A stretch of 64,000 nucleotides of DNA from a virus: positions 64,001 to 128,000 of the IMG/VR virus record IMGVR_UViG_3300026493_000016, one strand, 5' to 3'. Each line of letters begins with the position of its first letter. Positions within the stretch are counted from its first letter, which is position 1. The position numbers and the translations under genes were made by a program. The notes under the pieces are model-generated. The model saw only the letters and a list, made by a program, of their open reading frames with translations, did no database searches and was not told the DNA's origin. Below, one piece after another: positions 9,764-31,248 of this stretch.

Positions 9764-10342
9764 TTAGTTTTCCTCCTTAAAGTTTATACGCCCAGATTCT
9801 GTTCCATTTAAGTTAACCTCTTTTAACTCACCGTTAATAGGTATAAAAAGTCTAGTCATGTAAACCTTTCCGTCTTGCACGTATTTCAGCAAGAAGTTAG
9901 TAATTGACATATCGTTATACTTAGCGAGGTCTTTGATTACTGCTGATGAATTCTTAAAAGTTGTAGCACCAACACCGATATCTAGGTATTCGAAGATGTC
10001 TACATACCATCCGTTTAGGATAGCTTCATCGTCGTCATTTAAGTCATCTTCTAACCAGCACAACATGTCATGACCATTGACTGTAGCTGTATGTCTAGGG
10101 ACCCCTAAATTACTTCCTACAGGATTACTCCATCCAGCATCTTTCCAGTTACTATCGTCAATACACATATCATTTACTAGTTTAGCATAGTCAGCCGGAG
10201 TTAATGATGCTACTTTAACTTCTTTTGTGTGGCTGATAAACTTTAGATGTGTTACTGGTTTGATACCTAGTCGGTAAAATTGCTCCTCGATGTCTCCGAT
10301 TGTAAATACCTCAATTTGCCCTACAACTTCTAACTTATCCAT
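9764..10342 (-). CDS. hypothetical protein
   Basis: 192-aa ORF, GGAGG SD. Confidence 0.7.
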   Translation of the reverse strand: MDKLEVVGQIEVFTIGDIEEQFYRLGIKPVTHLKFISHTKEVKVASLTPADYAKLVNDMCIDDSNWKDAGWSNPVGSNLGVPRHTATVNGHDMLCWLEDDLNDDDEAILNGWYVDIFEYLDIGVGATTFKNSSAVIKDLAKYNDMSITNFLLKYVQDGKVYMTRLFIPINGELKEVNLNGTESGRINFKEEN

Positions 10343-10634
10343 TAATTTTATCCTCCCATTTGTTTAGTTTCTGATTAAACATAGCATTGAATCTAGCGTC
10401 ACTCACATTATATCGATGTAATAGTGACTCTACTACCATACTTACATCTACCAATTCTTCGATAACATCATCTCTGCCTTTAGCTTTGTACTCGCACCCT
10501 TGAGCTCCTTTGAAAGATAGTATTGCCTGAGCTACCTCGCCAACTTCCTCCATAAGCTTTAACACAATTTCCTCAGATGTTTTCGTGTTCATTTCACATA
10601 GACGGTCTAATTTAACCCTATCTAATGTTGTCAT
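10335..10634 (-). CDS. mazG: MazG-like nucleotide pyrophosphohydrolase
   Basis: KLMEEVGEVAQA...IEELVDV (EExxE..EExxD all-alpha NTP-PPase motif), KLNKW end. Confidence 0.88.
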   Translation of the reverse strand: MTTLDRVKLDRLCEMNTKTSEEIVLKLMEEVGEVAQAILSFKGAQGCEYKAKGRDDVIEELVDVSMVVESLLHRYNVSDARFNAMFNQKLNKWEDKING

Positions 10635-10851: not shown

Positions 10852-11586
10852 CTACTGGAAATAGTATTTGTTTAATGTCTTCTCTGGATGCATCTTACCA
10901 TTGATATACATATTACATAGTAGATGCTTAGCTCTATCTGGTCCTAGACGCTCTACAATATGTGATGCAATCTGACTCTTCTTCATACGAGAGCTGACAC
11001 CAGACTGAACAAGTAGTCCGTTCATACCGATTGCTCCTCGGCTATCTGCGGAACCTACTTTAGCACCATCACCGGATAATGTAGATACTTGTCGTTTAAA
11101 GGAACCAGCAATGTTAATAAGCTCCTCTTTCCAGAACAATGAGTTAAATGCTGCCTTCACATCATGTCTAGGCGACGGATAAGCCTCACTGTACATACCA
11201 AGAATACCTTCACCACGGAACTCGGTATAAGCAATAATACCTACTCCATGATGCTTGTACTCTTTAATAATAGCATCTACCTTTTCAACGTGCTTATCCT
11301 CGCACACAACATACACTAGGTCGCATATCTTGCTGTATGCTCTAAGCTGTTTATTGAGCCGTGTAGTCGAGTCTCTAGCTGTCTTAACTTCCACTCCTAT
11401 TAGTATACCATCACTACGGAAGATTAGCAAGTCTGCAATTACTGAGTTGATGTCGATACCTTTCTCACTAAGGACAACAGACTGCATCCCCTTAAAAGGT
11501 AGGAACAGTCGTTTATTATTTAAAACGAGCTGCTTCACATCATCCTCATAGAATGATTGTTTAGTAGACATATTCACCCTCCCCAT
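10852..11586 (-). CDS. PD-(D/E)xK nuclease-fold protein (sce7726/MmcB-like)
   Basis: SEK...IADLLIF...GVEVKTARDSTTRLNKQLRAY. Confidence 0.75.
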   Translation of the reverse strand: MGRVNMSTKQSFYEDDVKQLVLNNKRLFLPFKGMQSVVLSEKGIDINSVIADLLIFRSDGILIGVEVKTARDSTTRLNKQLRAYSKICDLVYVVCEDKHVEKVDAIIKEYKHHGVGIIAYTEFRGEGILGMYSEAYPSPRHDVKAAFNSLFWKEELINIAGSFKRQVSTLSGDGAKVGSADSRGAIGMNGLLVQSGVSSRMKKSQIASHIVERLGPDRAKHLLCNMYINGKMHPEKTLNKYYFQ

Positions 11587-11842: not shown

Positions 11843-11974
11843 ATTATCTCTCCTTACATTTTAGGTCGTATTGTAGTTCTGCGATGATGTAAGCAATTGC
11901 GTCCTTTCTGTTCATTCCTGATGCATCTATAAATTCTTGAAGTATCTGGTCGAATAGTACTTTTCTATCTTCTG

Positions 11975-12232
11975 TCATAGCTTAGCTCCTATTAAAGTAT
12001 CATATAAGTCTTGCTTAGACTCTAACGCTGCTAACTCTTCCTCTTTCTTCTGCGCCAATGTACCAAAGTGAACAACAGAGTTCCAATAGCTGCGATTAGC
12101 TGCATCTTTTATAGCGTTTCTGATGTGTTTAATGTCTTTCTTGATTAGCTCAATGTTACAGGTCTCATCAGGGATACCGATAATCTCATGCTTCCAATCA
12201 TTCGTAAAAGAAGTACGCTTTTCTGAGCTCAT
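11975..12232 (-). CDS. UVR/ClpC M-domain-like microprotein
   Basis: IKHIRNAIKDAANRSYWNSVVHF. Confidence 0.6.
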   Translation of the reverse strand: MSSEKRTSFTNDWKHEIIGIPDETCNIELIKKDIKHIRNAIKDAANRSYWNSVVHFGTLAQKKEEELAALESKQDLYDTLIGAKL

Positions 12233-12386
12233 TTAATCTCGCCTCCTCTTCTCTAATTCCAGCTAAAGCGGACCACATACCTGCATCAGCAGCCATGGTA
12301 GCCATTCTATCTAGCAAACTTAGTTTATGTTTAATCGCACGCAACTCATTCAAACTAGTAGTGATAAATTCATGTGGATTACTCAT
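12198..12386 (-). CDS. UVR/ClpC M-domain-like microprotein
   Basis: ELRAIKHKLSLLDRMATMAADAGMWSALAGIREEEARLNE. Confidence 0.6.
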   Translation of the reverse strand: MSNPHEFITTSLNELRAIKHKLSLLDRMATMAADAGMWSALAGIREEEARLNELRKAYFFYE

Positions 12387-12589
12387 CGTCCGAACCTCGC
12401 TTCACGTTCACTTTTTCTAGAGCGCAATTCATACTCCATAGCTCGTGCCTTTCTAGACAATCGTTCAACCTCTGACCAGAAGCTATTACGTACTGCTCGA
12501 ACGATGTCGTCTTTTGTTTCATCTAACACTTCATAAATCTCCTCGTCTGTTGCAGCATTAATTAGCTCTCTCGCTTGTTCTGGTGTCAT
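12383..12589 (-). CDS. UVR/ClpC M-domain-like microprotein
   Basis: LDETKDDIVRAVRNSFWSEVERLSRKARAM. Confidence 0.6.
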   Translation of the reverse strand: MTPEQARELINAATDEEIYEVLDETKDDIVRAVRNSFWSEVERLSRKARAMEYELRSRKSEREARFGR

Positions 12590-12819
12590 TTACCTTCCTC
12601 CTCAATATCAATCCATAATGGGTGATTCTTATACTCTCCTTCAAACTTTCGATATGATGCATATTTACCTGTACCTATTTGTAATTGTTTAACTCCGTCT
12701 TTCATTACAATAGAGCCCCTCCACGCGCCGTTACACACATAGAATTTAGTTCCGACAGGTAAACTACTAATAATCGTTTTCGTGCCTCCATACGGATTAT
12801 ATTCTTCTCCGGTCATCAA
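12586..12819 (-). CDS. small SH3-like hypothetical protein
   Basis: LPVGTKFYVCNGAWRG. Confidence 0.6.
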   Translation of the reverse strand: MMTGEEYNPYGGTKTIISSLPVGTKFYVCNGAWRGSIVMKDGVKQLQIGTGKYASYRKFEGEYKNHPLWIDIEEEGK

Positions 12820-13456: not shown

Positions 13457-13804
13457 TTACACCTCCCATTGAAATTCTAACCCGTATACTCCTAACGTGT
13501 CATTTCGTTTTCGGTATACTTTTATCTTGTTATAATGAAGCTCCTCGATTATCATTTGACGGATAATTTTCGACTCAAATATACATCCAATTCCCATCTC
13601 ATTTGCGTTATCCTTTGGTAACATGTACTGTGTTTTACCTTGTCTCGCTTCATGAATTAACTCAGTTTTGATAACGTCATAGATGTCTTTAATAGCAATC
13701 CCGTAATCGATTAGTTCTTTTTCTCGAACTAAGTGTTTCAATTCGATTCCTAATGGTAAATGAAAACCTTCACCTTCATCATGTACATGTTTCTCTAAAG
13801 TCAT
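13457..13804 (-). CDS. hypothetical protein, paralog family A
   Basis: LIHEARQG...IIEELHYNKI...FQW. Confidence 0.7.
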   Translation of the reverse strand: MTLEKHVHDEGEGFHLPLGIELKHLVREKELIDYGIAIKDIYDVIKTELIHEARQGKTQYMLPKDNANEMGIGCIFESKIIRQMIIEELHYNKIKVYRKRNDTLGVYGLEFQWEV

Positions 13805-14070
13805 TCTACATCCTCCTCACAATCGCGAATGTATGCTTCTAAATCTTGAATTAGTAGTTTAGCTGTTTCTGGTGTAAGGTTAACAGACGGATTCTCTCCT
13901 GATTCGTCTTCAGATGTGTAGTGCATTTCAATATTAAATGCGAATCGCTGCTCTTCATCAAAAGCTGTTCCTACTTCTATAAAATCGTCACCAGATGTCA
14001 CACAGTGTAATCTACGATATAATCCTCCGTTACCTCCATCTACAAAATAACCTGTTTTAACGTCACTCAC
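13801..14070 (-). CDS. hypothetical protein, paralog family B
   Basis: SVNLTPETAKLLIQDL. Confidence 0.65.
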   Translation of the reverse strand: MSDVKTGYFVDGGNGGLYRRLHCVTSGDDFIEVGTAFDEEQRFAFNIEMHYTSEDESGENPSVNLTPETAKLLIQDLEAYIRDCEEDVE

Positions 14071-14099: not shown

Positions 14100-14128
14100 A
14101 ATATAGCACACTATTTTAAAAAAGTCAA
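14100..14128 (-). promoter_or_regulatory. sigma-A-type promoter (also carries TGCTATATTAG)
   Basis: TTGACT-17-TATATT directly after terminator U-run. Confidence 0.7.
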
Positions 14129-14145
14129 CAAAAAAGAGAGACTTT

Positions 14146-14529
14146 TTAAGCCTCTCCTCCCATTTTCTTAATATCTCTTTTTAAGCTCTCTTTAAACTTC
14201 TTCTCATTTCGCTTAACTACGATTGCCCAATACCCGAGAGCAGTGTAGTGAGCTACTATGTTTTTAATAAAGAATAACGAGATACCAAACGCCATAGCTG
14301 TTAAGTAATAGATTTCGATAAAGTTAAAGTAGAGTTGTGTGTAAAAGAAGGCAAACACAATCTCAGCTACTAAAGTTAATCCGAAACCTAGCAATACTGT
14401 CCCATATAGTGGTGTCTCTCCTTTAGTTTTAATCTCTTTAAACTGTGCTACAACGCCTAGCAACTTCAACCCGTAGTTAACGCCGATACTCGCTGCGATA
14501 ACACATAATACTAAATCGATATTCGTCAT
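14146..14529 (-). CDS. multi-pass membrane protein
   Basis: three hydrophobic segments. Confidence 0.75.
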   Translation of the reverse strand: MTNIDLVLCVIAASIGVNYGLKLLGVVAQFKEIKTKGETPLYGTVLLGFGLTLVAEIVFAFFYTQLYFNFIEIYYLTAMAFGISLFFIKNIVAHYTALGYWAIVVKRNEKKFKESLKRDIKKMGGEA

Positions 14530-14915
14530 ACTAGCTCATACCCCGTTTCATCCATCTTAACATTCTCTACGATAGCGTATTTATTTCCTGATTGGATTAA
14601 TAGCTCTTTGATGAATTCTTTCTTAGGTACATACTCGCATCTAAATGGAGTGTACACGTTACGAACTGTTCTAGCTAACTCTTTACTTGGATACATCTTA
14701 ACAACACAAGATACTAACTGTCCACTAGCCTCGCAACATGATAGTTTTGGTTCCTTACTATCTTCCAACTTAGCTAATCCATGGTTAATCGCCGCTGTAA
14801 CTGGGTGTACTTTCCCGTCCTCTGTGTGCCATACATCTTTATAACATACTAGTCTTCTAGTCATTCTATTACCTCCTAAGGGAGCCAGCTTATGCCAGCT
14901 CTCCGTTTTCTCCAA
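14526..14915 (-). CDS. hypothetical protein (start uncertain)
   Basis: ORF track. Confidence 0.6.
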   Translation of the reverse strand: MEKTESWHKLAPLGGNRMTRRLVCYKDVWHTEDGKVHPVTAAINHGLAKLEDSKEPKLSCCEASGQLVSCVVKMYPSKELARTVRNVYTPFRCEYVPKKEFIKELLIQSGNKYAIVENVKMDETGYELV

Positions 14916-16167
14916 ACATTAGTGTAGTAGATTCATATGTTTCCTTACCGCGATATAACACAACAGCAGACTGAGATGGCATTGTTGCTGGTAGGTTCAG
15001 CGAGCTACTATAGTCGTTCTCTCCTACTGGTGACGATACTTGATAATGCATGCGACCGAATGACTCTTGTGTAATGTCTAGGTAATGTAGGTGACCAGAG
15101 AATAAGATTTTAATAGTTTTACCATTCTTCATAAACACTGGAATCTTCTCTTTTGCCTTAGGCATCTTGTCCCCATGTGTACCTACTACACGATGACCTA
15201 CAACCTCGATATCAAACATATCATTCTTGTTTCGGTTGTCAGTAATAACTACGTTAGGCATCTGGTTCAACTCTTCTTGAATCATAATAAGCGTGTCTAG
15301 GATAATGTACTCGACATTATTATTTGCTAGATTATCATTCTTATTCTGGAAGAATCGTGAATGGTTACCTGTAATCATGCTGAAGTGTACCGTATGGTTT
15401 TCTGATAGGTCGTTAAGCATTTCTACGAACAATCTGATAGACTTGCTAATCTGTGCTGCCATGTGAAACTCCAAGTCGAATGACTGTGTATTACGCATTA
15501 CTTGGTTCTCGATTATATCACCTAAGAATAGTACATGAATCTCGTCGAATACGCGAGTATCCATCTGCTGCTTAGCCCAACCTACTACACTATTAATCGA
15601 GTTCTGTAGTCTCTCGAAGTTGTAGTCACCAGTACGACTGTGGAACGTTTCAAGACCTACGTGCCAATCGGAGAATGCTAGAATCAATGCTTTCCCATTC
15701 TCAGCAACCTTAACATTCTTAGGCTCGGCTAAGTACTTAGGTGTTGGTAAGTCTTTAATCTCTGCTACGATTTCCTTTTTAAGGTCATCCATTAAGATTT
15801 TAAGAGCTGTACCTTCACGTTGTACTTTCTTGTATTCTCGTAAAAACTCCGTTTGTTTCTGTCTTTCCATAATGTGAGGTGTTACCATAGAGAACACATT
15901 CTCCTCTACCACAGCGACCTCATTACCAATTGGTTCGATGTTATCTACGGTTAAATCACCGTTCGTAGCTGCCATGTAAATAGCTGCAAGTGATTCACTG
16001 TTATTAATGTCATCGATACAAAACTGTAAGTCCTCTTTCGTTACCTTATCTCGTCCTAGTCCTGTTAATAGTTTATTTACAAGCGTGCGGTCAATTACCC
16101 CGCGCTCACGCTTGCTATATCCCATTAGTACTGCAATCACATCTTCGTATAGTTCAATCTTCTTCAT
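14890..16167 (-). CDS. calcineurin-like metallophosphoesterase
   Basis: DWH, GDII, GNH, HGD, GHLH motifs; N-terminal helical domain. Confidence 0.88.
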   Translation of the reverse strand: MKKIELYEDVIAVLMGYSKRERGVIDRTLVNKLLTGLGRDKVTKEDLQFCIDDINNSESLAAIYMAATNGDLTVDNIEPIGNEVAVVEENVFSMVTPHIMERQKQTEFLREYKKVQREGTALKILMDDLKKEIVAEIKDLPTPKYLAEPKNVKVAENGKALILAFSDWHVGLETFHSRTGDYNFERLQNSINSVVGWAKQQMDTRVFDEIHVLFLGDIIENQVMRNTQSFDLEFHMAAQISKSIRLFVEMLNDLSENHTVHFSMITGNHSRFFQNKNDNLANNNVEYIILDTLIMIQEELNQMPNVVITDNRNKNDMFDIEVVGHRVVGTHGDKMPKAKEKIPVFMKNGKTIKILFSGHLHYLDITQESFGRMHYQVSSPVGENDYSSSLNLPATMPSQSAVVLYRGKETYESTTLMFGENGELA

Positions 16168-16327: not shown

Positions 16328-17275
16328 CTACTCACCGCTCTCCGCCATGGCTTTAATCGCTGCTGCAATTACGTTAGCTGTGCCAGTAGGCAAAAACATT
16401 GTCCCTACATAACCAGAACCTGTAGTACCATCTTTCATATTAGCTGCCGCAAAGAACTGTTCGACTGTTACACCTTTCGTTCGTACTTGAACCATATCAG
16501 ATGTACGGGTTGTGCTAGCTACTAAAGTAACGCCATTCTCTCCACCGATATCCTTAAGGTTCCGGTGAGCCACTTCGTTTGTCCAGTCTTCTGCGTATAC
16601 AGTGCCAACTTGTACAGGTTCTCCATTAATGTTAATCATCATCCACTTCGTTTGCTGTCGTTTCTTCTCTACGAAGTCTGACTGCTGCTTAAGTTGACTC
16701 TTGATAACTGGTAGATTCTCTTTCATAATCTCCTGTAACGGCTTGTCCGCTAATACAGCTGTGATGTTACGACCGAATGCTCGATACAGTGCCATTAAAA
16801 TCTTGATACTATTATTCGTGTCTACGTCCTTCCACTGTTGATACTTAATACTAGCATGGATAACATTCATATCATTTTTAGAGGTATCTTGTACATTTTG
16901 GAATGTCGTCATTTCACTAGTTAATAGCAACGTTCTTAGGTAAACAATAGGTGGAAAGTCCGAGCTTACTACAGAGCGTCCTACACTAACTTTCTTTCCG
17001 TAAGTGTTAACGTGTATAAAGTCGCTAAACGGATTGTTCAGCGGCTCGATAGCCTTCTTAAAATCTTCGTTATCGAAGATAGGTAACCCGATAACAATAA
17101 TCTTACTTACCAACTGTGCTTGTGTCCCTAATGCGTGTATATCAAGCTTGTCCACAAATTCAACATCAACTTCGTAATCCGGTAGCATACGCTTAATTAC
17201 CGGAAGTGTAATTGTATTCATGAAGTTATCTTTCATGTACAACTTCACTATTTCTTTTTCCATTAGTATCCCCAT
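16328..17275 (-). CDS. hypothetical protein, degenerate DHH/DHHA1-like architecture
   Basis: C-terminal VQVRT..GSGYVG resembles DHHA1 SxRS..GGGH; no DHH triad visible. Confidence 0.55.
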   Translation of the reverse strand: MGILMEKEIVKLYMKDNFMNTITLPVIKRMLPDYEVDVEFVDKLDIHALGTQAQLVSKIIVIGLPIFDNEDFKKAIEPLNNPFSDFIHVNTYGKKVSVGRSVVSSDFPPIVYLRTLLLTSEMTTFQNVQDTSKNDMNVIHASIKYQQWKDVDTNNSIKILMALYRAFGRNITAVLADKPLQEIMKENLPVIKSQLKQQSDFVEKKRQQTKWMMININGEPVQVGTVYAEDWTNEVAHRNLKDIGGENGVTLVASTTRTSDMVQVRTKGVTVEQFFAAANMKDGTTGSGYVGTMFLPTGTANVIAAAIKAMAESGE

Positions 17276-20520: not shown

Positions 20521-21768
20521 CTATAACTCTAGTACTGCATTTAATTTTTCTGAGTCAATCTCACTTAACTCATCATCGTCGTCTTCTGGAGCTTCCTCAT
20601 CCGGTGTGATATCACTGATATCGTAGATAGGGTCAATCCAGTTGTCTAACTTAAGGATTTCATTGTTAGATGCTGGGAATGGTTCCCCTCGACTACCAAA
20701 CTCTTCCCAGATTAGACGATTTAGAAGTTCGGCACGTACTTTGTTACCTTCCTCTTCATTTCGTAACCAATCTAAGAATCTAGCTGTCTGCATCTTGTGT
20801 TCGTTACCCTTAAGGTCAACGTAAATGTAACTTTGACCAGATTGTTTAGCGATACCACAATCGATAGCTTGATGAACCATGTTGTACTCATAATCGAAAC
20901 CAGTGTCAGCGATTAAGTAGATATCCTCTTCCTGCATTGGTCGAGCTACTTTGTTTTTACGGGTACGAATACCTGCGATATGTCCAATACGCTCTTCCTT
21001 ACCTTTGATTGTCTTCTTAATAGCTTTCTTCTGTTTAACTTCCCATCGTTGAGACATTGCGTGTTCCCAAGCTTTACCGCCAGGGGTTTTGTATTGTTTT
21101 ACAAAGCTCATACCACCGATATCATCACGAACTTGGTTAATCCCGATGAACATTGCCTTAGACTCTGCAATCAATGGAGATAACTTCGTACATAACTGTG
21201 CTAGTGCGTTGGCTCGTGAGCCGACATCTTTCTCACCGAAGTCTTTTTCGTACTGGACCATAGATGGTGTTTGTCCTAATGAGTCCCAGATGTAAACGAT
21301 TGGACGATTAGGTGCTTTCTCTTCGAAAGTTTTAAGTGTCTTGGCTACTGTTTTACCAACTTCCTCAATCGTTAATGGTCGACCAGCTTTAGCGTCTGGT
21401 TCTTTAATCATAATCTTCTTAGTGTTGATACCTAGAGTAGTTAGTCGGACCTTATCGCTCGTACCCTCTACATCAATTAGAACTACAATACAACCTAACG
21501 CGGATGCTACACGTGCGATGTGATGTGTCATAGTTGATTTACCACCTGATGGGATACCTGCAATCTCAATCATACGTCCGAACGGTAACCCTCCACCTAA
21601 CGCTCTATCTAAGCGTGGGAAGAATGTCGGTAACCAGTCTTTTACTTCCGCGAAACCAGAGTCTTGTAGTAATACCAGACCATCAGATTCACTTGTCAAC
21701 TCACTCATATCGAAGTCTGCGGATAAATCTAAAATAGGTCCTTTACCTTTAACTTTAACTTTTGCCAT
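20521..21768 (-). CDS. recA: RecA/UvsX recombinase
   Basis: LDRALGGGLPFGR, Walker A GIPSGGKS, IWDS, INQVR, TPGGKA. Confidence 0.95.
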   Translation of the reverse strand: MAKVKVKGKGPILDLSADFDMSELTSESDGLVLLQDSGFAEVKDWLPTFFPRLDRALGGGLPFGRMIEIAGIPSGGKSTMTHHIARVASALGCIVVLIDVEGTSDKVRLTTLGINTKKIMIKEPDAKAGRPLTIEEVGKTVAKTLKTFEEKAPNRPIVYIWDSLGQTPSMVQYEKDFGEKDVGSRANALAQLCTKLSPLIAESKAMFIGINQVRDDIGGMSFVKQYKTPGGKAWEHAMSQRWEVKQKKAIKKTIKGKEERIGHIAGIRTRKNKVARPMQEEDIYLIADTGFDYEYNMVHQAIDCGIAKQSGQSYIYVDLKGNEHKMQTARFLDWLRNEEEGNKVRAELLNRLIWEEFGSRGEPFPASNNEILKLDNWIDPIYDISDITPDEEAPEDDDDELSEIDSEKLNAVLEL

Positions 21769-21791: not shown

Positions 21792-21828
21792 TTCCTCCGA
21801 AGAGGAGAGTAGGTATTACCCTACTCTT
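21792..21828 (-). other. paired RNA hairpins between ssb and recA, one with a cUUCGg tetraloop
   Basis: GAGTAGG-N6-CCTACTC then CCTC-TTCG-GAGG on minus strand. Confidence 0.6.
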
Positions 21829-22891
21829 ACAGTCCCGCCTCGTCAATCAATGCATCGATGTCGACAGCATCTAAATCGTTAAGGTCGATTTCTGTATCAT
21901 TAAGAGGTGTCTCTAAGTCAACGCCTTCTAGGTCATCTACTTTAACTTCTTCTGTTTTTACAGGAGCTGCTTTGACAGGTTGAGTTGCTGTAGTTGCCGC
22001 TTGAGTTTGATAAGGGTTTGTAGCTTGTGCTGTGTTTGCTGGTGTTACTGGTTGGTTAGTAGTAGCAGGTGCTGATTGACCACCTTCTTTGGGAACATTT
22101 GAATCAGGGTCGTTACTGTTTTTCCCTTCCAATACATCCGCAAATCGTTGCACCCAGTTTAGTCCATTCTCTAATAACTCAGTTGCACGACCATGGAACG
22201 ATAAATCTTCCAATTCATTCTGCCATCCTTCACCTAATGGAGGTAGCTGGTTTTGGTAAACTGTAACAGGTGCTTCCATTTGACCTTGTTTAGGCTTCTG
22301 GATTAAGACTGGTGAACCCGCATTAGGGTCTAAGAATGACAATTGACGACCGCCAGCTAAACGCTTATCAGTTAATGATGAATTGATAGTTTTCATAGCT
22401 GAGTGAGGTACATCGAATAATCGAACAACTAACTTACCCTTCTCGTCTCGCTCTTGTTTTTGAGTTCCATCTGGATTCTCAATGATTTTAACACAGTTAA
22501 CTGTGAAGAACTGCTTAGGTTTTTGTTGTCCGCCGAATGGAGTAGGAATCATCTCCTTAGCTGTCCATTCGTCAATCTTAGCATCCAAGAATAAGCTACC
22601 GTCTTTCTTACCTGTTAATGTAAAAGTATTAGATAGTTTCTTTTGGTTCTTAGTTGTTGCTTGTAAGAAGATTTTACGGCAGTGTTCTGCAAATTTACCA
22701 TATAAATCAGCCGATGGTAAGATTTGAATGAATACTTCCGGTTCGTCCTTGCTTAAGAATAGACGTTTATGTTTAGCTGTAGGATAAACAACCTTAGGGT
22801 TGTTACCACTGTTACCAGAACCTCCACGTCCACCTCCAGAACCTTCTAATTCCTTACGTTGTTGTTCAATAATATCTGCAAAGTTTACCAT
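21827..22891 (-). CDS. ssb: single-stranded DNA-binding protein (gp32-like)
   Basis: IQILPS core, low-complexity linker, acidic tail DIDALIDEAGL; upstream of recA. Confidence 0.82.
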   Translation of the reverse strand: MVNFADIIEQQRKELEGSGGGRGGSGNSGNNPKVVYPTAKHKRLFLSKDEPEVFIQILPSADLYGKFAEHCRKIFLQATTKNQKKLSNTFTLTGKKDGSLFLDAKIDEWTAKEMIPTPFGGQQKPKQFFTVNCVKIIENPDGTQKQERDEKGKLVVRLFDVPHSAMKTINSSLTDKRLAGGRQLSFLDPNAGSPVLIQKPKQGQMEAPVTVYQNQLPPLGEGWQNELEDLSFHGRATELLENGLNWVQRFADVLEGKNSNDPDSNVPKEGGQSAPATTNQPVTPANTAQATNPYQTQAATTATQPVKAAPVKTEEVKVDDLEGVDLETPLNDTEIDLNDLDAVDIDALIDEAGL

Positions 22892-27968: not shown

Positions 27969-28166
27969 CTATCTTACCCATCTGTTTCCCCACGCTCCTT
28001 CCTCCATCCGTATTGCTAGTTCTGTCTCTAAGTTCTCAGTTAACTTCTTAGATAGAGAGGTAAGACGTGCTAAGTCTTCCCAATCCATCTCTTGTATATT
28101 GTTAGTTAACAAGCGCTGTGTATACTCTGTCAGGTTTCTTAAGTGATTAACGTTTTCTGTATGCAT
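27969..28166 (-). CDS. helical microprotein (UVR-like DWEDLARL)
   Basis: ORF overlapping pol stop. Confidence 0.55.
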   Translation of the reverse strand: MHTENVNHLRNLTEYTQRLLTNNIQEMDWEDLARLTSLSKKLTENLETELAIRMEEGAWGNRWVR

Positions 28167-31100
28167 CTTTATTAGCCTCCATTAGATTAATAAACTCATC
28201 GTACTTCTCTTCTGTTAACTTACCACAGTTCTTACAGTTTTTCAAGTGTTTCTTTTTCATATGGTAGTCACAATATCCTTTAACTGTAGCGAAAGTAGAT
28301 AGGTCTTCTGCATCGTAGTCTACCATATCATTGTAAGTGATACCAATCTCTGCATCAGCTGTTACTGGGAATCTAGTACGTTCTCCTTCCCAATCGATAT
28401 ATAACCAGTCGATAGGTAAATTTTCCATTACGTGAACACCAATCTTAGCCATTTGTTTAATCTCTTCTGGTGGGCAATCGATTACGATACTATCGTGTAC
28501 TGTCATAACGATACGAGAACGTAAGTTTAGCTTCTCGATAATCTTGTTGATTAGGATAACTGAAGAGTTTGTTAAGAATGCGCCAGTACCCTGTACACGT
28601 GTATTGTTCGATTGACGAAGTGCCTCGTTCTGTTTACTTTTATCTTTAGAGAAAATATCTCGAAGGTTACGAGTGAATCCTTGTTTCGTTTCGATATATC
28701 CATGGTCACGTACAAACTGCTTGTTACCTTCGATGTATGCTTCTACCGTTGGTTTCCCTGCGAAGAAGTCTTTAAATAGCTGCTCTGCCTCTTCTAATGT
28801 CATGTCCCACTTCGGCGCGAAGGACATCGGTACCTCACCATATACTACACCGAACGATACGGCTTTTGCTTTTGTACGTTCATCATCTGTGATTTCATCG
28901 ATAAGCTTCTTGAATGTTAATGCTGCTGTCTCTTTATGGATGTCAGCACCTTCAATGAACGACTTAATCATTTCATAGTCACCAGAATCTAATGCTAGAA
29001 TACGAGATTCTAAGGCACTATAATCGAGCTGGATTAATGCTCCGCCATCGAATGATGTAACGAACTCTCGTTTAATCGGGTTGATATAGTCGAATCGAGT
29101 AATATCACCAGACTTCCTTGGTAAATTTTGTAAATTAGGACCAGCTGATGATAACCGAGATGTCGCTGTACCTGTAGGATTGAATCGTCCGTGTAATCGT
29201 CCATCCGCATCTACCATTTCCAAGAACTTATAAGTGAATGATTGTTTACGAGTTTTAACTAAAGAATACTCTAGGTAAATCTCTGCAAGTTCTTTATGTT
29301 CCGGATAGTTGTCCTTAATGTACTCGAACGCTGTCTTATCCGCTTTAAAGTGATACCATTCTGCCTCATGCTCTGTTATGTTGTTGTTTAAAGCAGTATC
29401 TGTAAGATACTCTCGGTTAAATGGTAACTGTACCTCATTGATAAGGTACCATGCGCGTTGTTTGTCATCTGAAGATGCTGGATTAAACTTTCGTTTCTCT
29501 GGGTCCATAAGTTTAGTTCGCAATTTCTCAGTTTCTGGGTCACGCTCTGCTTTTGGTTTAGCAAACTCTTCTACACCCATCTGGTACAGTTCTTCTTTGT
29601 AAGCTTCAACATCCTTCGACGTTTTATATGTGCGTATAAGCTCGATTAAGCGCTGTTCTTCTGCGATGTATATCTCAGCCATATGTTTCACATAAGGGAT
29701 GTCTAATTGGACGCCAGTAGCCTCTAACTTAGCTAGTACATTAGTTAGTTCTACATAATGGTTCGAGTACAGGTCAATCTTCTTCGTTAACCCTTCATCG
29801 TGTGCTCGTTTATCTAACGCGTTGTAGATACGTAAACACACATCAACGTCACCTGCTGCATAAGGACTTAGCATTTCAAAGAAAGGAATCCATTCATAAT
29901 TAAAATCACTACCATCAATTTCATTACGCGGACTCTGTGGTGTTCCGAAATCGGGCATCTTAGGCTTCACATATTTTAAATCCTGCTGTTTTAATAGAAG
30001 CTCACCAATCTGCTCCATAATGGTAGGGTTATCCTCTTTTGTTTTCATGTCTTTCTTGTAAGCTGTATTCTGTTTCTTGAGTACTTTTACTACTTCTTTT
30101 AACTCTTTAATCTGTGCGTTAGCTTCTGCACGGTCAAGTGTACATTGTTCTTTCCATTCATCCTTAAGTTTGTCGATACGCTTCTTATCTTCAGCGAGAG
30201 CATTCTTCTTAAAGTTTTCCTTGAAGTCTTCTAGCTCTCTATCATATCCGCCCATATCTGTAAATTCATATGTTAAGTCTGATAGTCGTAAAGAGTCTTT
30301 TACTTCTTGGTTGACTAGTAGCCAGTACATAACCTGTGTATCTCGGTTATTATTAAACACTGTGATGTTTCTAGTTAAACGAAGGAAGCGAATATCGAAC
30401 TTAATATTATGCCCGACTTTAATCTGTTTAGAACCTACGAACTCTTCTACGAATTTATAAATCTCAGCTAACTCTCCTAGATTCCAAGTGAAACATTTAT
30501 GCTGCAAAGGTATGGTGACACCTTGTCCCTCACGCCACGATAAGCTAATACATAAAGGTTTAGCTCCTACCTTCTCTGCACTTAATGTGTTAGTCTCTAA
30601 ATCCCATGCAACTACAGGAGCATTAACAATCTCTTTAGTGAATATCTCACGTACACGTGCAATCGTGGTAACGTCCTCGTACGTCACTTTCTTAGGCATG
30701 AACGCTGAGTAACCATCCTCTACATATTTCTTTAAGATACCCATATCTGCCACTACTAAGTTAGTAATCTTAGGCTGGAACAACAAATATTCCATAGAAT
30801 AAGTAGGGAGAATCCAACATTCATGTGTCTCGTCTGTTAATTTAGATGTGATAATCTCTCGTCTAGGCACACCTCGAAGTTTAGAAATCTCTGATTTTCC
30901 TATTGTAGCCTTACACGACATATTACCCATCGGAACAATAACATCGGGTTTGTCTTTAATAACCCGAGCTGAGAACTCTTCGTATAACGGGTTTGCTTCT
31001 TTCTGCGTTACGGGTACGTATGATACTGCTTTCTTATTTCTATTACGCGTACGGACCTTAGGGACACGTTTAAACGCGTAATCGATGTACCACTGGTCTT

Positions 31101-31248
31101 GTTTAAGGTTCAATCCTTTCTTACCTACCAGAGCTGCTAGTGTTTTACCTGCTTCAGTATTGTGGTAGTTAAATTCTAGTTCGTTTGTTCCGCGCTTCTG
31201 TTTGAAGTGCTCTTCGCGGATGTGGTCTAGCGCAAACATAATTTTCAT
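28147..31248 (-). CDS. polA: DNA polymerase family A with N-terminal UDG-like and 3'-5' exonuclease domains
   Basis: DLET exoI, GHNIKFD exoII, YAAGD exoIII; motif A DYSALE, B RTKAKAVSFGVVYG, C VHDS; uninterrupted. Confidence 0.97.
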   Translation of the reverse strand: MKIMFALDHIREEHFKQKRGTNELEFNYHNTEAGKTLAALVGKKGLNLKQDQWYIDYAFKRVPKVRTRNRNKKAVSYVPVTQKEANPLYEEFSARVIKDKPDVIVPMGNMSCKATIGKSEISKLRGVPRREIITSKLTDETHECWILPTYSMEYLLFQPKITNLVVADMGILKKYVEDGYSAFMPKKVTYEDVTTIARVREIFTKEIVNAPVVAWDLETNTLSAEKVGAKPLCISLSWREGQGVTIPLQHKCFTWNLGELAEIYKFVEEFVGSKQIKVGHNIKFDIRFLRLTRNITVFNNNRDTQVMYWLLVNQEVKDSLRLSDLTYEFTDMGGYDRELEDFKENFKKNALAEDKKRIDKLKDEWKEQCTLDRAEANAQIKELKEVVKVLKKQNTAYKKDMKTKEDNPTIMEQIGELLLKQQDLKYVKPKMPDFGTPQSPRNEIDGSDFNYEWIPFFEMLSPYAAGDVDVCLRIYNALDKRAHDEGLTKKIDLYSNHYVELTNVLAKLEATGVQLDIPYVKHMAEIYIAEEQRLIELIRTYKTSKDVEAYKEELYQMGVEEFAKPKAERDPETEKLRTKLMDPEKRKFNPASSDDKQRAWYLINEVQLPFNREYLTDTALNNNITEHEAEWYHFKADKTAFEYIKDNYPEHKELAEIYLEYSLVKTRKQSFTYKFLEMVDADGRLHGRFNPTGTATSRLSSAGPNLQNLPRKSGDITRFDYINPIKREFVTSFDGGALIQLDYSALESRILALDSGDYEMIKSFIEGADIHKETAALTFKKLIDEITDDERTKAKAVSFGVVYGEVPMSFAPKWDMTLEEAEQLFKDFFAGKPTVEAYIEGNKQFVRDHGYIETKQGFTRNLRDIFSKDKSKQNEALRQSNNTRVQGTGAFLTNSSVILINKIIEKLNLRSRIVMTVHDSIVIDCPPEEIKQMAKIGVHVMENLPIDWLYIDWEGERTRFPVTADAEIGITYNDMVDYDAEDLSTFATVKGYCDYHMKKKHLKNCKNCGKLTEEKYDEFINLMEANKDAYRKR

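Follow-up and report, generated by a model that had tools for sequence, protein, structure and literature searches.

Three small overlapping genes of Bacillus Wphviruses with a shared tryptophan motif: candidate hairpin docking proteins, one with a borderline likeness to the ClpC middle domain

Some of the closest described counterparts of the locus examined here belong to the regulation of the ClpCP protease in Bacillales. The residues F436, R443 and D444 of ClpC make contacts between middle domains (M-domains), and F436 is additionally needed for MecA, the F436A variant being toxic (PMC5699869). Control of the ClpCP resting state through these M-domain contacts is under active study, and ClpCP is an antibacterial drug target (PMC5699869, PMC12583610). 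The reference points for the M-domain are residues 413-451 of Bacillus subtilis ClpC, the resting state of the Staphylococcus aureus protein (9qcl, 9qqr) and the MecA-ClpC complex (3pxg). A phage protein that acts on this protease has been described: Gp53, a 25-kDa protein that modulates ClpCP of B. subtilis, attaches mainly to the N-domain of ClpC in a MecA-like manner (PMC6873191). The earlier note on the DNA studied here had cited SPO1 Gp53 as a phage ClpC adaptor, and the published description is indeed of an adaptor-like protein (PMC6873191).

We identified three co-oriented and overlapping minus-strand open reading frames (ORFs), microproteins A, B and C, which can be read directly from the sequence of a 64,000-nucleotide stretch of viral DNA (the window; positions 64,001 to 128,000 of the IMG/VR record IMGVR_UViG_3300026493_000016). 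The earlier note had reported three such ORFs of 62-85 aa, and we recovered them at the following positions of the window, with a neighbour on each side.

12586-12819, minus strand: 77-aa gene upstream of A, phrog_7629, no annotated function; its 3' end and the start of A share 4 nt
12383-12589, minus strand: microprotein A, 68 aa, phrog_5545; W38; strong SD site GGAGG
12198-12386, minus strand: microprotein B, 62 aa, phrog_5548; W38 and R45 invariant; weaker SD site GAGG
11975-12232, minus strand: microprotein C, 85 aa, phrog_5507; W50; strong SD site GGAGG
11844-11978, minus strand: gene D, 44 aa, downstream of C, phrog_5805; overlaps the end of C by 4 nt

The stop of A and the start of B overlap by 4 nt (ATGA), and B overlaps C by 35 nt. 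Gene D belongs to the coupled string with C, yet does not carry the tryptophan motif described below. Within the 35-nt dual-coding stretch (12198-12232, minus strand), the C-terminus of B (ELRKAY.FYE) and the N-terminus of C (MSSEKRT) share bases in two frames, and the invariance of these two termini is therefore partly due to double constraint.

Upstream of the block, we identified a pair of signals that may delimit its transcription unit.

14131-14161, minus strand: terminator-like hairpin (14-pair stem, then a T run), end of the upstream transcription unit
14100-14128, minus strand: sigma-A-type promoter-like site (TTGACT, 17-nt spacer, TG-extended TATATT)

The promoter-like site begins within 3 nt after the terminator-like hairpin (14161-14131); its -10 region reads GCTATATTAG and is accompanied by a good -35. 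Next come AAGGAGG and the GTG start of an 89-aa gene (13801-14070), and from this gene packed or overlapping genes extend through A, B and C to about 10696. To judge from these signals, the site at 14100-14128 is probably the start of the operon that holds the three genes, and the succession of terminator, sigma-A-type site and packed string suggests early or middle transcription by the host sigma-A.

At the DNA level, the region shares 84-90% identity with phages that include PPIsBest, Phireball and Hakuna. By this identity, with which the taxonomy of the records agrees, we assign the window to a Wphvirus (Bastillevirinae, Herelleviridae), a myophage of roughly 160 kb from the Bacillus cereus group. 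About 54 phage records, every one of them a Bacillus Wphvirus, hold genes A, B and C in synteny, and the overlaps and coupling among them are preserved across the orthologous loci examined. Set against diverged orthologs (lowest identity 40% for A, 60% for B and 69% for C), the dN/dS values of the three genes range from 0.02 to 0.65, most of them lying below 0.35, and the synonymous sites are nearly saturated; C is the most conserved, at 0.02-0.13. An SD-like site precedes each start, and each protein matches its PHROG family over the full length (A, 5545, E 3.3e-37; B, 5548, E 6.1e-41; C, 5507, E 2.8e-57). All three are real genes under purifying selection.

We additionally noted some variation in annotation and gene structure among the orthologous loci. 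In phage BCPG1, B is intact yet unannotated (locus segment 1480-1686), and in Tomato (locus segment 1228-1840) A, B and C are all unannotated, with a reverse-strand ORF called in their place. The apparent frameshift of B in Tomato falls on an N of that record, and thus provides no evidence for natural loss. In the clade of Eyuki, Azalea, Tomato and DirtyBetty, the A ortholog has 61 aa, a short end taking the place of its basic C-terminal tail, and directly adjoins B without the ATGA overlap. The shortened A of these phages suggests that the tail past about residue 58 is dispensable.

The three genes sit within a module of replication, recombination and nucleotide-metabolism genes, of which the following were identified in the window.

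28147-31248: DNA polymerase
21827-22891: SSB-like protein
20521-21768: UvsX-like recombinase
16328-17275: exopolyphosphatase
14890-16167: exonuclease
10852-11586, minus strand: sce7726-like (PD-(D/E)XK-type) nuclease, adjoining the A-B-C block
10335-10634: MazG

The sce7726-like nuclease was found in 716 phage records, from Herelleviridae of Staphylococcus, Bacillus, Enterococcus, Listeria and Lactobacillus; going by this distribution, it is a core gene of the Herelleviridae and a handy anchor for synteny. In the interval upstream of the nuclease in Bastillevirus, Caeruleovirus, Nitunavirus and Bequatrovirus (five phages), we found no relatives of A, B or C. The absence of the block from these sister genera indicates that it is a genus-specific accessory insertion and, as the same replication module is present in them, that it is not part of the core replication machinery. 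Such a pattern is as expected of host-interaction genes, rather than of core replication parts.

All three proteins share an invariant register, A-x5-W-x5-hydrophobic. This corresponds to the small-residue pair, the Trp six residues later and the hydrophobic residue six after that, which the earlier note had described and which are present in A, B and C alike. That note had also made its proposal depend on conservation of the Trp in homologs, and in the diverged orthologs neither the Trp nor its flank varies: RAVRNSFW in A; [ML]W[SH], together with A32, L41 and R45, in B; and DAA[NR]RSYWNSV in C. The pattern A[AV]x4Wx5[LIVFMY], which was defined post hoc, occurs at 5 of the 758 Trp residues in phage ORFs of at least 40 aa, and three of these five are those of A, B and C. 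The other two ORFs with the strict pattern lie at 373-582 of the window (minus strand, 69 aa) and at 30678-30938 of the genome, outside the window (minus strand, 86 aa); neither is among the top matches to the C profile.

The AF2 model of B (pLDDT 90.8) is a helical hairpin with helices at residues 4-35 and 38-56, and that of C (pLDDT 81.9) has a disordered segment at residues 1-16 followed by a hairpin with helices at 24-46 and 50-84. In both models the Trp (W38 in B, W50 in C) is the first residue of helix 2 and is placed at the tip of the hairpin. For B and for C, the models hence predict a UVR-style helix-turn-helix hairpin whose turn carries an aromatic residue. No catalytic or otherwise known domain was found in A, B or C in searches of Pfam, NCBIfam and PDB sequences; the Pfam and NCBIfam scans returned sub-threshold noise only.

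Pairwise BLASTP among A, B and C gave no match. Comparison of the family profiles with hhalign, in contrast, aligned A with C over 45 columns, W on W, at E 4.5e-5 and a score of 28.5, which none of 60 column shuffles reached (maximum 18.6), and the reversed A family scored 8.9. Among 257 gene-strand ORFs, A was also the best non-self match to the C profile. Since the A-C score exceeds the shuffle, reversed and ORF controls, we accept A and C, at the level of their profiles, as distant paralogs derived by duplication. The A-B (E 0.35) and B-C (E 0.066) alignments likewise place W on W, and are not significant.

The hairpin geometry itself is widespread. When the B model was realigned by geometry only, with VIA-align, Rop, the seryl-tRNA synthetase arm, PspA and CHMP came out at Z 8-9 and every ClpC chain ranked below the 50 best matches, indicating that the fold of B is generic. 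ColE1 Rop, PspA, the synthetase arm and CHMP3 have the same geometry as B (rmsd 1.3-2.6 A over 55-62 residues). For C, the leading Foldseek rows are likewise generic hairpins, namely bacterioferritin helix pairs, CHMP3 and T4 UvsY, and ClpC first appears at rank 38. These generic hairpins differ from A, B and C in having no sequence relation to them, and the invariant tip-Trp motif occurs in none.

The explanation that we favour, with moderate confidence and partly on the strength of predicted models, is that A, B and C are accessory Trp-tipped hairpin docking modules of Wphviruses, produced by coupled translation and acting by protein-protein contact. Each would be translated as part of a coupled string from a sigma-A-type operon in the replication module, and would form a non-catalytic antiparallel two-helix hairpin with an invariant tip Trp, as modelled for B and C. 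Docking would presumably involve the tip and the neighbouring conserved surface, and the partners could be host or phage proteins, or possibly the microproteins themselves. The host Hsp100 middle-domain network is the only specific target for which there is any support, and this for B only, which could cap the M-domains of ClpC or compete for adaptors. As helical hairpins are very common, the term "docking module" is a weak and generic claim.

An alternative, though an unlikely one, is that B mimics the ClpC/ClpE M-domain as a free-standing protein, with A and C as accessory hairpins. The W38/R45 tip of B would engage the F436/R443 head-to-head surface of the ClpC M-domains, or else the adaptor surface for MecA or McsB. 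Either the repressed resting state would be broken, leading to deregulated proteolysis, or adaptors would be excluded, and phage proteins would be protected.

The likeness that underlies this reading is confined to B. B and the M-domain are both antiparallel hairpins, comparable in length, whose tip carries an aromatic residue (W38 against F436), with an Arg seven residues on (R45 against R443) and matching hydrophobic core positions, all in one ungapped register, and the aromatic residue and the Arg are invariant in B. The differences are that the Hsp100 M-domain is an insertion in the first AAA+ module whereas B is a stand-alone ORF of 62 aa, that B has Trp in place of Phe/Tyr, and that neither the acidic residue that follows the aromatic one (the "FE" of UVR motifs) nor the equivalent of D444 is conserved in B.

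In a Foldseek search with the B model (3Di and amino acids, 350,542 PDB chains), chains of ClpC led the list, at ranks 1, 2, 4, 9, 11, 13-15, 22 and 28, with rmsd values of 0.6-0.8 A over 44-46 columns, 16-23% identity and E-values of 0.9-4; the UVR domain of Escherichia coli UvrB was at rank 49. With E-values of 0.9-4 throughout, the ranks are barely separated. For B. subtilis ClpC, the identity of 23% over 44 columns corresponds to the 10 identities found in the register that the earlier note proposed. In BFVD, the sole significant match was an ortholog of B, and an E-value of only 7e-5 for this 66%-identical protein indicates that Foldseek has little power at the length of B.

Against the M-domains of ClpC and ClpE from 15 Bacillales genomes, the B family aligned over 45 ungapped columns with E 5.8e-4 and a score of 21.8 (hhalign), with W38 on F436 and R45 on R443; the position of D444 is variable in B, so that two of the three contact residues are kept. 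The M-domain string of B. subtilis ClpC quoted in the earlier note is exact and corresponds to residues 413-451, with F436 as the tip Phe; that note had set the W of B on the tip Phe in an ungapped alignment, which hhalign reproduced independently. None of 40 column shuffles reached 21.8 (maximum 13.1) and the reversed family scored 13.4, while a true control pair, the UVR domains of UvrC and ClpC, scored 21.4, on a par with B. The B family resembles ClpC (17.8) and ClpE (18.1) specifically, as the scores for UvrB, UvrC and McsA are 10-11.5. As a single sequence, B ranked first of 598 phage ORFs (40-140 aa) against the ClpC+ClpE profile, with a score of 20.1 over 46 columns, the runner-up scoring 16.9 over 15 columns (median 7.1, 99th percentile 13.7).

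These values need to be corrected for selection, because the best ORF was picked genome-wide. A pairwise E-value of about 1e-3 across 598 ORFs corresponds to about 0.7 matches expected by chance, whereas extrapolation of the empirical tail gives about 0.02-0.05, so that the likeness of B is borderline after correction. Against the mimic reading there are also the absence of ClpC from the VIA-align top 50, and the failure of the Pfam UVR family PF02151, of custom HMMs and of the profile search of PDB sequences, all detailed below. In the ESM Atlas, B obtained scores of at most 0.81, which is chance level, and when the B profile was searched exhaustively with HMMER against 1.84e9 representatives, only B's own cluster was returned and no longer or fused relative; a word-indexed search returned two clusters. 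The phage record furthermore holds no additional Clp-linked gene (ClpP, MecA or Clp_N). On balance, B appears to resemble the ClpC/ClpE M-domain weakly but specifically, with borderline significance.

For the mimic reading there is a precedent of ClpC targeting in the related phage SPO1, which acts on ClpC with Gp53 (PMC6873191). Like Gp53, B comes from a Bacillus phage of the Herelleviridae, and would share with it the target ClpC and the competition with host regulators. Gp53, however, has 25 kDa and belongs to a host-takeover module, against the 7 kDa of B and its location in a replication module.

A further alternative, again improbable, is that A, B and C, perhaps with the flanking 77-aa and 44-aa products, form a hetero-oligomeric helical bundle that serves phage replication or recombination, for example as a mediator or loader accessory, and that the likeness to ClpC is coincidental. 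The 4-nt and 35-nt coupling overlaps kept in orthologous loci would suit such subunits, as would the paralogy of A and C, which is typical for hetero-oligomers, and the location between the exonuclease, UvsX-like and SSB-like genes on one side and the sce7726-like nuclease on the other. T4 UvsY (4zws), a recombination mediator, appears at rank 20 (E 2.7) in the Foldseek list of C, and a UvsX-like gene lies 8 kb away; the non-significant W-on-W alignments of A with B and of B with C point in the same direction. The sister genera, however, have the same replication module without the block, and the match of UvsY to C is no better than those of the bacterioferritin and CHMP3 hairpins.

Returning to the accessory docking modules that we favour, we consider next whether any of the three belongs to the UVR family, a question raised by the earlier note's suggestion that all three may be mimics. 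With PF02151, whose curated cut-off is 21.5 bits and with which true Bacillales UVR domains score 23-49 bits, there was no match at E<=10 for A, B, C or any of 10 B orthologs, nor anywhere in the six frames of the whole 145,872-base phage record, whereas 13 of 14 control genomes responded. Membership of the UVR family, for which that note had suggested a profile search, thus fails. Nor did the family profiles of A, B and C match any PDB sequence of ClpC, UvrB, UvrC or McsA at E<=10. We also assembled a custom UVR set of 48 genuine segments (UvrB, UvrC, McsA, ClpC and ClpE) from 15 Bacillales genomes; with the resulting UVR, ClpC and ClpC+ClpE HMMs, A, B and C scored at most 9 bits, mixed with shuffled, reversed and unrelated ORFs. 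The helix-2 signature of UVR domains (aromatic-E-x-A-A-x-L-R-D) is incomplete in B, which keeps the aromatic residue, the small residue at +4, I/V at +6 and R at +7, with the acidic residues at +1 and +8 not conserved; in A and C the Arg is missing as well.

By hhalign, true UVR subfamilies score 19-53 against each other. Compared with the pooled UVR profile, A reached 17.6 (E 3.5e-3) in an alignment of 46 columns that sets its W on the tip Phe, a score that none of 40 shuffles attained, and C was at null level. An unrelated protein calibrates these values: Kamfam gp200 (57 aa; locus segment 2072-2245), which occupies the positionally equivalent slot in a Bastillevirus, scored 17.9 against the pooled profile through half a helix (AQLRNGIAYLE against AELRDxIxxLE). 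We rejected it as a UVR relative, regarding the match as a half-helix coincidence that calibrates false positives; it indicates that the score of A is at chance level and that the hhalign E-values run optimistic. Chance scores near 18 against the UVR profile thus arise within 54 ORFs, which bears on the mimic reading of B as well. Of the three UVR mimics proposed earlier, then, A shows a chance-level likeness and C none.

It is accordingly very improbable that the hairpins mimic the UVR domains of UvrB and UvrC and, by preventing the two proteins from pairing, block nucleotide excision repair: A does align with the pooled UVR profile at E 3.5e-3 with the tip Phe under its W, and the UvrB C-terminal domain does stand at rank 49 of the Foldseek list of B, but A, B and C score 8-14 against UvrB-only and UvrC-only profiles, which is null level, gp200 attains 17.9 by chance, and a Pfam UVR match is absent. 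Finally, that A, B and C are non-functional ORFs with a motif shared by chance is next to impossible and effectively refuted already by conservation, since, short, overlapping and unnamed as they are, and left out of the annotation of BCPG1 and Tomato in the case of B, they persist in about 54 genomes, with a low dN/dS where dS is saturated, and have SD sites and confident folds (B, C).

The putative docking modules considered here belong to an ordinary class, that of small phage hairpin proteins. PHROGs 5545, 5548 and 5507 are catalogued without annotation, and the hairpin fold, the tip-Trp motif and the kinship of A and C are new descriptions. The comparisons also illustrate that short helical hairpins easily imitate UVR motifs, with scores of 17-18 arising by chance among a few dozen ORFs. 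Even if B leaves ClpC alone, three "hypothetical" PHROG families still gain a fold, a tip-Trp motif and, for A and C, a relationship. If the likeness of B to the M-domain does reflect its function, B would be the first known case of a protein that acts on the head-to-head contact of the M-domains, and would provide a compact natural tool to probe or deregulate ClpCP. The Herelleviridae would then attack ClpC at two sites, the N-domain through Gp53 and the M-domain through B.
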